56,766 nt of DNA, taken from assembly GCA_017549445.1 (NCBI GenBank), contig JAFYUU010000015.1, positions 1 through 56,766 on the forward strand, given 5' to 3'. The notes under the pieces are model-generated. The model was not told the origin of the DNA. It saw only the letters and a list, made by a program, of their open reading frames with translations, and made no database searches. This DNA comes from Alphaproteobacteria bacterium (lineage in GTDB: Bacteria; Pseudomonadota; Alphaproteobacteria; Rs-D84). The position numbers and the translations under genes are program-made. Every line of letters begins with the position of its first letter. Position 1 is the first letter of the stretch. This document shows positions 1-3,785 of this stretch, piece after piece.

Positions 1-1043
1 AATTCGGTCAAACTTTCCGCCGTCAGATAATCACCCTTTGCCTGCTTTTCTTCAATCGCCGCTTCCAACGTTGTTCTCACCGTATCCAGTTCTTCACTGG
101 TCGCCAAACCATCTAATGATGGAATTGTTGGTGTATCCGTCAAATCATTGTATGAACCTGTTGTCGCAACCGTTGCCAAATCAGCAGATTTCACATATCC
201 TTCCAACGAAGGAATATTTATCGCATCAATTGCATTCTGCAATGCTGCATCCGCCGCACTCATGTCTGCCTTGGTCGCATACGTTTCGCCCAAACCATTG
301 ATTGCGTTTTGCAGATTTGTCACCGTGGCGACATCTGCCTTGCCCGACTGCAATGCAGTCACCGCATCGTTCAGTTCGGTCAAACTTTCCGCCGTCAGAT
401 AATCACCCTTTGCCTGCTTTTCTTCAATCGCCGCTTCCAACGTTGTTCTCAACGTATTCAGTTCTTCACTGGTCGCCAAACCATCTAATGATGGAATTGT
501 TGGTGTATCCGTCAAATCATTATATGAACCTGTTGTCGCAACCTTTGCCAAATCATCAGATTTCACATATCCATCTAACGAAGGAATATTTATCGCATCA
601 ATTGCACCCTGCAATCTTTGTTCAACTTCGGTCAATTCTGATTTTTTTGCATAGTCCGCAGAAATCGTTTCAACAGTTGTTTTCAGTGTTTCGATTGTTT
701 CATTGTCCGCAGAACCTGACTTTAACGTTTCAACTGTTGTTTTTAATGTTTCCAGTTCCGCCTTATCAGCATAATCCCCGGCTGCCTGTTTTTCATCAAT
801 TGCATCCTGCAAAGCATTCTGAACTTCGGTCAACTTTTCTGTTGTCACCAACCCCGTTGCAGAAATCACATTATCCAAAATATTGATATTATCACCTGGT
901 GTCAATATTCCTTGCTTTAATGCCAACTCTGTATCGACGTATTTCTTACTGGCCAGATTCACCGATGCCGCCTGTGCCGATGCACAGACCCCTGCGAATA
1001 TAGCAGCTGCGAAACCAGAAAACATAATATTTTTAATCTTCAT
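1..1043 (-). CDS. Secreted fibrous repeat protein with phage tail-fibre-like motifs (partial, runs off left edge; absent from the ORF track)
   Basis: ATG at 1043 behind AAGGAAAAG and open to position 1. It reads MKIKNIMFSGFAAAIFAGVCASAQA (signal peptide), then ASKKYVDTELALKQ, KQAxGDY and VATTGSYNDLTDTPTIP repeats. Confidence 0.85.
   Translation of the reverse strand, partial: MKIKNIMFSGFAAAIFAGVCASAQAASVNLASKKYVDTELALKQGILTPGDNINILDNVISATGLVTTEKLTEVQNALQDAIDEKQAAGDYADKAELETLKTTVETLKSGSADNETIETLKTTVETISADYAKKSELTEVEQRLQGAIDAINIPSLDGYVKSDDLAKVATTGSYNDLTDTPTIPSLDGLATSEELNTLRTTLEAAIEEKQAKGDYLTAESLTELNDAVTALQSGKADVATVTNLQNAINGLGETYATKADMSAADAALQNAIDAINIPSLEGYVKSADLATVATTGSYNDLTDTPTIPSLDGLATSEELDTVRTTLEAAIEEKQAKGDYLTAESLTE
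3..616. repeat. Intragenic tandem repeat, period 372 bp (124 aa)
   Basis: 3..~244 is nearly identical to 375..~616 (ttcggtcaaactttccgccgtcagataatc starts at both 3 and 375). Confidence 0.9.
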
Positions 1044-1082
1044 CTTTTCCTTCCTTTATCTTCGTGCGGTTATCGCAACTTC

Positions 1083-3785
1083 TCATTCTTCATCGGCATC
1101 AACTGTCACCGATACCCACTCTGACGTTCCATCACCCTTCGACATCAGCATAACCATTTCGCCCGCATTGCCTGTGCCAGAATTGATTTTCTCGGCCGTC
1201 ACAGCACCATTTTGCAACTTGTTCACTGTAATCGAATTATCTGGAATTTCATACTGATTGATGGCAGTTGACATCTCAGTTTCGGTCACATACGTATCTG
1301 CCGCCTTTTCTTCAGTCAGATAGCTTTTTGATTCCAATATCTGGTTTGTCACATACTGTGTCAAATCTGGTCTGTTTTCCAAATCATTATAATCGCCCGT
1401 TGTTGCAACCTTGTGCAGTTTTGCAATTGCTTCAACCAATGGTGCAATCTGACCTGCCAATTCAACATCTTTGGCTTCTAATGTTGTCTTGACTTCATTC
1501 AGTGCCGCCACCGTTGCATAGCCGTCTAATTGCACCCCACCACCAGATACAACATCTGCAATCTTCTTATCAACTTCGGCCTTGGTGTATGTGCCATCCG
1601 CAACACCTGCAATTGCTTCCAGAACATCTGTCAACTCTTCTGATGTCGCATAATCGCCTTCATCTTCTTTGGCATCAATCTTGTTCTGCAATTCGGTCTT
1701 TAATGCATCCAACGCTTCCTGTGTAATCATTGTTGGCTTATCCAACAAATCATTATACGAACCCGTTTTTGCAACCACGGCCAAATCTGCATTTTCGACA
1801 TAATCAGACAAAGAATTTTCTACATCTGTCACTTTTGACAATGCACCTTGTGCCGCCGCATTTGCTTCGCCAATTGCGGTGGTATTGTCTGCAATCGCAT
1901 CTTTATTTGCATCAATTGCATCCTGTAAAGCATTCAAGTCCGATTTACTTGCATATTCCGTGGCCAACATATCACGCACTGCACTCAATTCTGCCGCCGT
2001 CAAGACATCTGTCTGATCCATTTTGGCATCAATTGCACTTTGCAATGCCTGCTTGGCCGCATCCAAATCGGATGACGAAACCAATCCGCTCAATTCACCC
2101 TTGGTCGCATAATTTTGCAAAGAATTTACAACATTCTGCAACTGTTCTGCGGTTGCATGTTCACCTGCTTCTTGTTTCTTGGCAATTTCTTCTTCTAATG
2201 CCAACACAGCTGCATCCAACTGATCGCTTGTCACCAAGTTTGTCGGAACAACTGGGATATCGCCCTTCAACGCAAAACGTGCATCGGCCTCGTCCTTGGT
2301 ATAGTAATTAGTCAAATCCACACCATCGCCTGCTTGCATCTTGTCGATTGCGGCCTGCAATTCGGACTTTGCAGACGCCAATTCTTCTTTTGTTGCCAAT
2401 CCTGCAATCTGCTGTTCAACTGCATCCAACGCAGTATTCAATGCCGTATCCGCATCTTGCAAACTTTTGATTGTTGAATTCAATCCATCAATTGCATCAT
2501 CAACATACTGTTTGTTCACATCCGGTTTTTCGATTGCATCAATCGCATTCTGCAAATTCGCATCTGCTGTTTCCAATGCACTCTTAATCCCATCTACATA
2601 TTCTTTTGTTGCATAATCGTCAATTGATAACATTTGTTGTTCCAACGCATCAATTGAACTCTGCAGACCTGCATCAACTGCACTCAACTTATCCAGTTCT
2701 TCTTGCAGTTTTTCGCCCGTCACCGCACTGCCCTGCAAACCAGCAATCGCTTCATTGATTGCCTTATCTGCATCTTGCAAAGTTTTGATTGCAGATTCCG
2801 CATCTGCCATCTGTTGTGCGGTTGCATAATTTGCCAAATCAGATTTCATCGCCACACCGGCCTGGGAAATTGCATCTGCAATCATCTGGTTCAACAAAGC
2901 GGTGTCAACCGAATCCCCTGGTTCACCTTTATCACCCTTGTCACCTTTATCACCCTTATCACCCTTGGGTCCCTGTGGCCCTGTTGCACCAGGTTCGCCT
3001 TTATCACCTTTTTCACCCTTTTCACCCTGGGGTCCGGTATCACCTTTGTCACCCTTATCCCCCTTGGGTCCTTGAACACCTGTGCCACCAATCAGTTCTG
3101 CCTTGGCAATCAGTTCACGCCATGCAGTATCATCACCCGAAGAATAACGCCACAACAAGTGCGTATCATTTGAACCGATTTCAACCTCACGACCATCTGT
3201 CCCATCTAAACCAGACAAATCAGATTTCAAACTTTCAACATCAACTGCAATTTCATTTGTTTGCGGATCCAGCAAGACATAACCATCTTGTTTTGGCGCC
3301 AAAACATTCTGCTTTTCCACCAAAGTATCTTTGATATCTACGTCCGCCCCTTTCAGGTCTTCAACATCGCCCAACAGACGATCAACATCTGCACGCAATT
3401 GTGATGCCATACCTGCATCCATACCGCCGGACGTTCCACCTGTTGAACCACCACCTGGTCTGGTCGAAGAACCACCACTGACTGCGGTCGAACCGCCCAA
3501 GTATTTACCAATTGACAAACGTGGCGATGTTGCCAGACGTCCCGTTGTTGCGGTTCCCGCCGGCTTTGCCGCTGTTGTCTTGTTGGCACTTGGTGTCACA
3601 CGCACAGAACCTGCACGTGCGGTCGTTGCCCCCGATTTTTTCGCCGTTGTGGCACTGTTTGTCCCCACATAGGTTCCATTTCCACCCAGTGTCCGCACAG
3701 TTGACGCACCAAACGATGGAGTCACCATCGCAGTGCAAAGCACGCAAATTATTGATAGCGTTGATATTTTCAGTTCTTTTCTCAT
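1083..3785 (-). CDS. Large secreted collagen-like / coiled-coil fibre protein with phage tail-fibre motifs
   Basis: 900 aa: signal peptide, Ser/Thr/Gly-rich linker, [13 protein letters not shown] pre-collagen motif, 19 GXY triplets, long heptad-like stalk, two TGxYNDL motifs and [19 protein letters not shown] near the C-terminus. Confidence 0.85.
2910..3080 (-). repeat. Collagen triple-helix repeat (GXY)19
   Basis: Uninterrupted [18 protein letters not shown] ... GEP GDS. Confidence 0.95.

Follow-up and report, generated by a model that had tools for sequence, protein, structure and literature searches.

Fibre genes g1 and g2 open a variable array of phage-fibre-like paralogues with predicted Sec signals in Candidatus Enterousia

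A barrel gene and two fibre genes at a contig end

We analysed a 56,766-nt stretch of DNA (hereafter, the window) from an alphaproteobacterial genome of the order Rs-D84. At its left end, a predicted barrel gene, g0, and two fibre genes, g1 and g2, follow one another on the minus strand, with these features:

3867..4571, minus strand: g0, predicted outer-membrane beta-barrel of 234 aa ending in RYEF (AF2 and Foldseek)
3810..3837, minus strand: promoter-like site TTGACC-16-TG-GATAAT in the g0–g1 spacer (weak; consensus scan only)
1083..3785, minus strand: g1, first fibre of the array, complete, 900 aa
3708..3785, minus strand: g1 signal peptide, residues 1–26 (inspection and alignment of 61 sequences)
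3411..3707, minus strand: g1 N-module, roughly residues 27–125 (conservation in alignment)
3108–3164, minus strand: beta-hairpin preceding the collagen segment
2910..3089, minus strand: collagen segment of 20 G-X-Y triplets, residues 233–292 (Pfam Collagen, E 1.9e-8)
2379–2399, 2091–2111 and 1935–1955, minus strand: beta-layer-type motifs LATKEEL, YATKGEL and YASKSDL, upstream of the YNDL rod segment
1734–1775 and 1368–1409, minus strand: g1 YNDL modules (motif search)
1368..1775, minus strand: g1 rod segment between its two YNDL modules
1101..1163, minus strand: g1 C-terminal cap, predicted beta-hairpin
3..1043, minus strand: g2, second fibre, initial 347 aa visible, the rest cut by the contig end
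927–953, minus strand: g2 neck/beta-layer motif ASKKYVDTE at the start of the mature chain
3–281 and 375–653: 279-nt direct repeat in g2, 90% identity

The downstream gene, g2, is incomplete because window position 1 is the terminus of the contig (C15). The direct repeat in g2 probably caused this break in the assembly, and module shuffling can also draw on it. In another sample, a contig that is 98% identical (L004) likewise terminates inside g2, probably for the same reason, its homology to the window stopping at position 592, and the remaining array genes were not found elsewhere in the 64%-complete assembly of this strain. The visible part of g2 carries two YNDL modules; its full-length orthologues measure 687–726 aa.

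Both fibre genes begin with a Sec/SPase I-type signal, as judged by inspection and a home-made heuristic; in each case the mature chain starts with AS, in g2 directly after MKIKNIMFSGFAAAIFAGVCASAQA. A prepilin reading of the N-termini (MKVKNIAFSG/F...) was rejected because position +5 is not Glu and a short hydrophobic stretch leads into an AxA site, and a lipoprotein signal was rejected because the residues preceding Cys do not fit a lipobox. The motif VAxTGxYNDLx[DN]xP occurs at residues 671–684 and 793–806 of g1 and at residues 168–181 and 292–305 of g2, KQxxG[DE][YH] has one occurrence in g1 and three in g2 (as KQxxGDY), and g1 also contains NGAVTAEKI (residues 859–867). The two proteins are 40% identical across 173 residues (E 1e-18), and on sequence grounds their likeness is true paralogy rather than chance. 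The first-pass annotation had described a tandem of co-oriented genes separated by 39 bp, both with signal peptides and sharing the KQxxG[DE][YH] and VAxTGxYNDLx[DN]xP motifs. Coordinates and N-termini agree with this description and both motifs were located in both genes; the pair is real, but it is only the start of a multi-gene array that extends across the genus.

The g1 product consists, in order, of the signal peptide, a basic N-module rich in S, T and G, a coiled coil, the beta-hairpin, the collagen segment, a rod that is a mosaic alpha/beta coiled coil, and the C-terminal hairpin cap. Conservation of the signal peptide across species is unusually high (LKISTL.I.C.LC in a 61-sequence alignment). 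The N-module, in which conserved linear motifs including SSVRSLGGAGTY are set within a low-complexity basic linker, is restricted to the first gene of the array as counted by its motif VRxLGG (57 of 63 first ORFs versus 1 of 197 later ORFs); a second protein with a g1-type N-module is encoded at C17:5554-6144. We regard this module as a candidate anchoring or export element. The collagen segment also matches PDB collagens and PHROG tail-fibre families, and collagen was the only solved structure to which a PDB sequence search related g1. Nearly all array paralogues share the cap-type ending (alignment A3), and 171 of the 260 array proteins have G..W among their final 40 aa. Cys pairs cluster in the last 45 residues of 97 of these proteins, while the rest of the chain is nearly free of Cys (present there in 20 of the 260), a distribution that speaks for export. 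An AF2 monomer of g1 residues 671–900 was poor (pLDDT 61); at low pLDDT, it places the cap strands at 206–212 and 218–224 of the 230-residue query, and a Foldseek search of this model against viral structures returned nothing below E 0.1.

The AF2 model of g0 is a beta-barrel (pLDDT 84.6) for which Foldseek finds OmpA, NspA, Ail and OpcA in the PDB at E 1e-8 to 1e-6, and at the sequence level g0 gives weak matches to Opacity/OMP_b-brl and Adr. Having this fold, a signal peptide and an aromatic residue at its C-terminus, g0 is, as modelled, a small outer-membrane beta-barrel of the OmpA-TM/NspA/Ail/Opa/Omp25 type. It lies directly upstream of the array in 63 of 80 related loci, these being the loci in which our script detected both, and this position makes it a candidate docking partner or anchor for the fibres. 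The consensus scan found no terminator-like site between g0, g1 and g2 on the minus strand.

A variable fibre array across Candidatus Enterousia

In Candidatus Enterousia the array is a conserved chromosomal set of 5–9 genes in which g0 is followed by 4–8 or more co-oriented fibre paralogues, g1 and g2 coming first. All four contexts compared have the same gene order, in which a divergent pal is followed by g0, g1, g2 and more paralogues, and this order recurs in 63 loci of Enterousia, each counted as having at most 8 ORFs with a signal peptide, typically 4–6 where the downstream sequence suffices. Within the order Rs-D84, 115 of 201 genomes contain a match, nearly all of them belonging to one genus. 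The neighbours are housekeeping genes, with pal adjacent and ftsEX and tolB nearby. Capsid, tail, baseplate, integrase and lysis genes were found in none of the four contexts, and no outer-membrane translocator linked to the array was found.

Signal peptides, called by inspection and the same home-made heuristic, were predicted on every one of the 260 array ORFs kept (63 first and 197 later ORFs), and the proteins mostly end in E rather than in an aromatic residue. Their N- and C-terminal caps are conserved, whereas the shafts and tips are mosaics that vary among nearly identical strains. Between species the fibres are 35–44% identical, compared to 57–85% for the neighbouring genes. In a strain whose flanks are 99–100% identical, g2 is replaced past residue ~150 and the number of collagen triplets in g1 is altered, and among g2 orthologues that begin identically, three different tips occur. 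Two g1 proteins at 97% identity (P0001 and P0002) have 19 and about 7 collagen triplets, respectively; most orthologues contain no collagen. Strain comparison itself thus displays the fibre variation behind the diversification that we propose below.

Several signatures connect these fibres with phage tail fibres and other trimeric rods. The fibre modules have PHROG tail-fibre matches, and repeated YNDL modules are common to the array fibres and a phage protein (P0090) encoded on a gut phage contig together with capsid, connector and tail-tube genes. A fibre module matches 2971 representative clusters and, among the newly listed representatives within the best 150 of these, about 104 of 137 have no signal peptide. 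Searching deposited phage genomes with the g1 rod (tblastn) gave one weak match; it is metagenomic phage contigs and profile searches that connect the fibres with phages. Each long fibre has 2–5 MATKDD-like beta-layer motifs where about 0.01 would be expected, [YL]A[TSK]K..[LMV] motifs are enriched in the array fibres, and the mature N-terminus reads A-S-K-x-Y-V-D in 141 of 197 later ORFs, which agrees with ATKAYVDKAI, a neck motif in the prophage fibre HylP1; the beta-layer and neck meaning of such motifs is taken from the same study (PMC4786415). The array fibres therefore have, at the motif level, the neck and beta-layer connectors of a trimeric autotransporter stalk. P0090 and the matching clusters without signals bear out the first-pass proposal that genuine phage tail fibres contain these modules too, but its attribution of the motifs to phage fibres needs widening, since they are found there and are equally typical of trimeric-autotransporter stalks. 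From its picture of domesticated phage modules serving as cell-surface fibrils, the phage modules and the signal peptides stand, while the surface location is one that we infer.

Proposed function and alternative explanations

On balance, we favour the explanation that g1 and g2 are the first members of an array of probably trimeric, Sec-exported, variable attachment fibres; judged from the sequences, the most likely function is that of variable surface fibres for attachment. Each fibre would be exported by Sec and its predicted signal peptide cleaved, after which the chains may assemble in the periplasm as parallel trimers with long alpha/beta coiled coils, to which the g1 trimer of this strain would add a collagen triple helix. 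The register may be set at the conserved C-terminal cap, a predicted beta-hairpin in which a Cys–Cys loop often provides bracing. The trimers would then reach the cell surface and bind partner cells or host material, and module recombination, gain or loss of collagen repeats and replacement of the tips would keep altering the length and specificity of the fibres. For crossing or being held at the outer membrane there are two candidate routes: the conserved N-terminal caps may dock on a surface element such as the barrel g0, or the fibres may pass through the single type IV pilus secretin of the genus.

We advance a broader version of this proposal only tentatively. Enterousia have been predicted to depend on partner cells (PMC12306168), and phage receptor-binding modules combined with a Sec signal and lineage-specific caps might form the cell-attachment apparatus of these partner-dependent bacteria. 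Through their conserved caps, the fibres could attach to a common base, link up in series like T4 long-tail-fibre segments, or sit at the end of a type IVb pilus, with the fibre tips recombining; such an apparatus would amount to a bacterial equivalent of the host-range cassettes of phages, and Gram-negative cells would thereby display folded trimers in a novel way.

TcpF and CofJ are soluble or pilus-tip-bound proteins that dock through their N-termini in type IVb-like pilus systems. By analogy, the array fibres, docked by way of the mature N-termini that they conserve, might pass through the secretin of a type IVb-like pilus machine and be released or carried on a pilus, an explanation that we consider unlikely. 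The components are at hand, as the genus has one secretin, a core type IV pilus gene present in 58 of 61 genomes, and a PilB/GspE-type ATPase with a platform protein; the window encodes a type IV pilin (20078–20548), and pilin-like proteins measuring about 405 aa also occur. The secretin has a short fibre-family gene as its immediate downstream neighbour (38000–38668), and the mature N-termini of the fibres are strongly conserved. However, the main array and the pilus genes show neither co-occurrence nor an operon link, and the spacing of roughly 30 kb between the array and the secretin (38.8 kb), which the first-pass annotation had named as a possible export or anchoring route, is attributable to conserved gene order.

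Because the array adjoins tol-pal, an internal role is also conceivable, in which the fibres stay within the envelope as coiled coils, either periplasmic or tethered to the outer membrane, and act as its braces or spacers like an oversized Lpp, together with Tol-Pal and g0. The array is divergent from the adjacent pal and near tolB in every context, Sec export is the only export predicted, no translocator accompanies the array, and the basic N-module of g1 could bind peptidoglycan or membrane. Rods of 300–1000 residues, however, far exceed the width of the periplasm, the modules match receptor-binding phage fibres, and extreme strain variation, tip replacement and changes in collagen repeats are unexpected for an internal scaffold, which leaves this explanation quite improbable.

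The remaining two alternatives have very little probability. Shaft modules and PHROG matches of the tail-fibre type would suit a prophage, tailocin or gene-transfer agent remnant in which the fibres belong to a phage-like particle, but the missing phage genes in all contexts, the predicted signal peptide on every array member (most of the listed phage-type relatives have none) and a locus fixed amid housekeeping genes throughout the genus make this highly doubtful. Least credible of all is that the fibres are trimeric autotransporters with a YadA anchor in the unassembled part of g2: neck and beta-layer motifs, signal peptides and the existence of YadA anchors in 25 of 61 genus genomes fit this idea, but the complete g1 has no anchor, full-length g2 orthologues (P0080-82, P0091 and the g2 of L006) finish in small tips for which Pfam shows no anchor, array proteins mostly lack a terminal aromatic residue, and the true trimeric autotransporters of the genus, encoded at other sites, have almost nothing in common with the fibres.

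Read as variable attachment fibres, the array bears on the biology of a gut lineage, uncultured and common in ruminants, birds and humans, whose genomes measure about 0.9 Mb, and it takes up about 1% of the Enterousia genome. As with the MAT fibres of Bdellovibrio described below, it also raises the general question of how folded, anchorless trimers pass a Gram-negative outer membrane and are held there. If the fibres are attachment organs, they would point to the partner of Enterousia, and their tips could be used as partner-finding probes.

Comparison with known fibre systems

Like the collagen-like adhesins Lcl of Legionella, Scl1/2 of streptococci and BclA of Bacillus, g1 has a G-X-Y segment with a strain-variable number of repeats. 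It differs from Lcl and Scl in having neither LPXTG nor the Lcl C-terminal domain, and against the family models NF046116 and NF038329 it scored 48 bits, through the collagen segment only, versus cut-offs of 500 (Lcl) and 325.

With phage tail fibres and T4 fibritin, the array fibres have YNDL, FxNDxGY, LGGVKV and DGAVTxxKI modules in common, as well as segmented rods, trimeric in phages, and collagen-plus-hairpin cassettes, and their cap is placed like the fibritin foldon. Homology of the cap to the T4 foldon was considered and rejected (hhalign probability 0.75%; no foldon chain in a PDB profile search). In contrast to virion tail fibres, which have no signals and are encoded amid phage structural genes, the array fibres have predicted signal peptides and a chromosomal housekeeping context.

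The type Vc trimeric autotransporters YadA, BadA and SadA, whose long trimeric coiled-coil stalks serve as adhesins in Alphaproteobacteria, and which the array fibres would resemble in these respects, likewise combine a Sec signal, stalk beta-layer and neck motifs and modular shuffling. Pfam scans of g1 and of the full-length L006 array proteins gave no match to YadA_anchor (PF03895, a 12-stranded barrel), a model that does detect the true trimeric autotransporters of the genus, and Pfam annotation is empty for the g2 orthologues P0080-82 and P0091. The first-pass annotation had described the pair as having no outer-membrane anchor, and neither g1 nor full-length g2 orthologues carry a YadA or autotransporter barrel. 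Lacking a C-terminal YadA_anchor, the array fibres cannot transport themselves. Module sharing between the true autotransporters of the genus and the array fibres was also looked for and rejected, the two being unrelated in sequence.

In their likely function, the array fibres are comparable to the MAT (mosaic adhesive trimer) fibres of Bdellovibrio bacteriovorus, which have signal peptides, are phage-like and lie on the cell surface, their anchor being unidentified (Caulton et al. 2024, PMC10769870). Both systems consist of multiple signal-peptide-bearing paralogues resembling phage tail fibres, with a trimer state that is putative for the array, and both combine an invariant N-terminal end with variable C-terminal tips. 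Both also belong to a bacterium with a need to attach to other cells, which for Enterousia is a prediction. Tip exchange and predicted signal peptides are both seen in the array. Unlike MATs, the array fibres do not have the ~130-aa beta-rich N-domain (inspection of 260 proteins rather than direct sequence comparison) and start the mature chain with the neck motif or, in g1, with the low-complexity basic module. Their shafts are mostly alpha/beta coiled coil, they are encoded in one ordered array beside an outer-membrane barrel gene, the S74 chaperone-protease was not found in them, and homology to MATs was not detected.

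A fibre-gene array in Candidatus Enterousia

The window covers 56.8 kb from the start of contig JAFYUU010000015.1 (C15), part of a 763-kb MAG of 64% completeness, and begins with three genes that share one orientation:

3867-4571, minus strand: g0, predicted outer-membrane barrel, 234 aa
1083-3785, minus strand: g1, fibre gene, 900 aa, complete
2910-3089: collagen segment of g1, 20 triplets, preceded by a hairpin
3-1043, minus strand: g2, fibre gene, 347 aa visible, open at the contig end

The first-pass annotation had described g1 and g2 as a tandem, co-oriented pair of exported fibre genes, and this observation stood: the two are 39 bp apart, both N-termini are predicted to be of the Sec/SPase I type, and every motif it had named was found in its place. 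With 40% identity across 173 residues (E 1e-18), g1 and g2 are, judged by sequence, true paralogues. The assembly breaks within g2 both in the window and in L004, a contig of 98% identity obtained from a different sample, probably because of a 279-nt direct repeat in the gene (90% identity between copies).

Relatives of g0 were found in Candidatus Enterousia genomes, some described in a study that assigned Enterousia to the order Rs-D84, reported genomes below 1 Mb that lack biosynthetic pathways, and proposed a partner-dependent lifestyle (PMC12306168). Relatives of g1 occurred in 115 of the 201 genomes of the order, nearly all from one genus. Gene order was constant in all contexts examined: a divergent pal, then g0, g1, g2 and more co-oriented genes without Pfam matches, with ftsEX, plsC and tolB on the other flank. 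At the 63 loci where our script detected both g0 and the following array, g0 preceded one to eight consecutive signal-peptide ORFs, typically four to six where downstream DNA was sufficient; the fully read arrays L006 and L008 comprised seven to nine fibre genes. A prophage is ruled out because no phage structural genes lie near the array in the contexts examined.

Phage-type modules and fibre anatomy

That the shafts consist of modules of phage tail-fibre type was borne out by PHROG tail-fibre families, which match g1 outside its collagen segment as well, and by repeated LA.VA.TGSYNDL.DKPTIP modules common to g1 and P0090, a 905-aa protein with a Peptidase_G2 domain and no signal peptide, from a gut phage contig (L009) that carries capsid, connector and tail-tube genes. 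The YNDL module of g2 matches one unnamed PHROG family. The L009 tail-fibre gene yields the database protein only when TAG is read as Gln, and L009 seems to be a gut phage with a recoded stop codon.

Matches to a 141-residue module of g2 came from 2971 representative clusters. The best 150 included 137 newly listed representatives, of which about 104 have no signal peptide and combine 5-34 YNDL copies with typical tail-fibre N-termini; a few of the module matches listed bear signal peptides and different N-termini. P0163, P0172, P0193, P0198, P0212 and P0243 are large, with a signal peptide, N-termini like MKK...AQ/VPQKMSYQAVVRN and 6-14 YNDL modules. We take the N-termini of such proteins to resemble those of Bacteroidota surface proteins, and exported proteins of a different phylum, probably Bacteroidota, seem to have taken up the phage module. 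Enterousia is thus not the only group of bacteria whose exported proteins have acquired it.

The first gene of the array (g1 type) encodes a conserved signal peptide and then a basic, S/T/G-rich module with SSVRSLGGAGTY and a second, 11-residue motif; of the 63 first ORFs, 57 contain VRxLGG, compared to 1 of 197 later ORFs. On another contig of the same genome, C17:5554-6144 (plus strand) encodes a short protein (~178 aa) with the g1-type N-module (VRRLGGAGT and the 11-residue motif) and a short coiled coil; the gene adjoins an RsmD-like methyltransferase gene, an arrangement repeated in L008. In 141 of the 197 later ORFs (g2 type and others) the mature protein starts with A-S-K-x-Y-V-D, the type of neck/beta-layer motif given as ATKAYVDKAI for the HylP1 prophage fibre by Hartmann et al. 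(PMC4786415). The rods are Ala-, Thr- and Asp-rich, and each long fibre contains 2-5 MATKDD-like beta-layer motifs (~0.01 expected), a motif type characteristic of alpha/beta coiled coils that form trimers.

A ~20-residue pattern (hydrophobic-V-L, a turn with G, W-x-x-V/I) forms the C-terminus of nearly all members. Among 260 array proteins, 171 have G..W within the last 40 residues and 97 have two cysteines ahead of this cap; cysteine elsewhere is rare (20/260). The g1 cap is a beta-hairpin in an AF2 model that is poor as a whole (pLDDT 61), and it is placed like the foldon of T4 fibritin, to which no homology was detectable.

Variation among the fibres

Identity between species is 35-44% for the fibres compared to 57-85% for neighbouring proteins. 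Between L004 and the window, flanking proteins are 99-100% identical and g2 only 58%, with DNA homology ending at window position 592, around residue 150 of g2. Full-length g2 orthologues (P0080/81, P0082 and P0091; 687-726 aa) are identical to g2 over the first 48 residues and end in three different small tips. Collagen repeats differ in number as well: g1 of this strain contains 20 G-X-Y triplets (Pfam Collagen, E 1.9e-8), two alleles that are 97% identical contain 19 (P0001) and ~7 (P0002), and most g1 orthologues lack collagen triplets. Mosaic replacement, tip exchange and collagen repeat changes fit a surface structure under diversifying selection well and an internal scaffold poorly.

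Anchoring, export and comparison with known fibres

The first-pass interpretation stood in part: besides the phage-type modules, the lack of an outer-membrane anchor was upheld. For its suggested route through the secretin at ~38.8 kb, a type IV pilus gene, no direct support was found. No YadA_anchor or autotransporter domain was found in the complete g1 and no membrane anchor in the L006 array proteins, and the g2 orthologues end in small tips instead. True trimeric autotransporter adhesins, encoded away from the array in 25 of 61 genus genomes, have essentially nothing in common with the array fibres by sequence. At G108:C2:54400-55600 (L101) and similar Enterousia loci, YadA-anchor proteins of 225-254 aa have almost no passenger domain. 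The AF2 model of g0 (pLDDT 84.6) matched OmpA, NspA, Ail and OpcA in Foldseek (E 1e-8 to 1e-6), and we are confident in predicting a small outer-membrane barrel, which, given its constant position directly upstream, may be a docking partner of the fibres.

A single secretin is present in 58 of 61 genus genomes, and the genus also encodes a PilB/GspE-type ATPase, a platform protein and pilin-like proteins of ~405 aa. On C15 we found:

20078-20548, minus strand: type IV pilin, 156 aa, prepilin site MKCESG/RSMIEMLGVLAIMGVL
38000-38668, minus strand: short fibre-family member, 222 aa, directly downstream of the secretin
C15:152288-156945, minus strand: pilus/type II secretion-like operon (421 aa, 226 aa, 543-aa PilB/GspE-type ATPase, 356-aa platform protein), ~100 kb from the secretin

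The pilin has Glu at +5, a C-terminal Cys pair and a sub-threshold N_methyl match (E 9.7e-4). After its signal peptide, the short fibre-family member starts with AVVSTDYVEEKLATKQ; it contains the KQxxGDY repeat five times, and its C-terminus is of phage-fibre type. Pilus- or secretin-dependent export is possible because the genus has both pilus machinery and this family member beside the secretin; no specific link of the secretin or pilus genes to the main array was found, and the ~30 kb between array and secretin simply reflects conserved gene order.

These features are best read as an array, shared across the genus, of Sec-exported and probably trimeric fibres assembled from modules of phage-fibre and autotransporter-stalk type, putatively variable surface attachment fibres. 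Their closest functional analogue is the mosaic adhesive trimer (MAT) family of Bdellovibrio, of which they are not members (PMC10769870).
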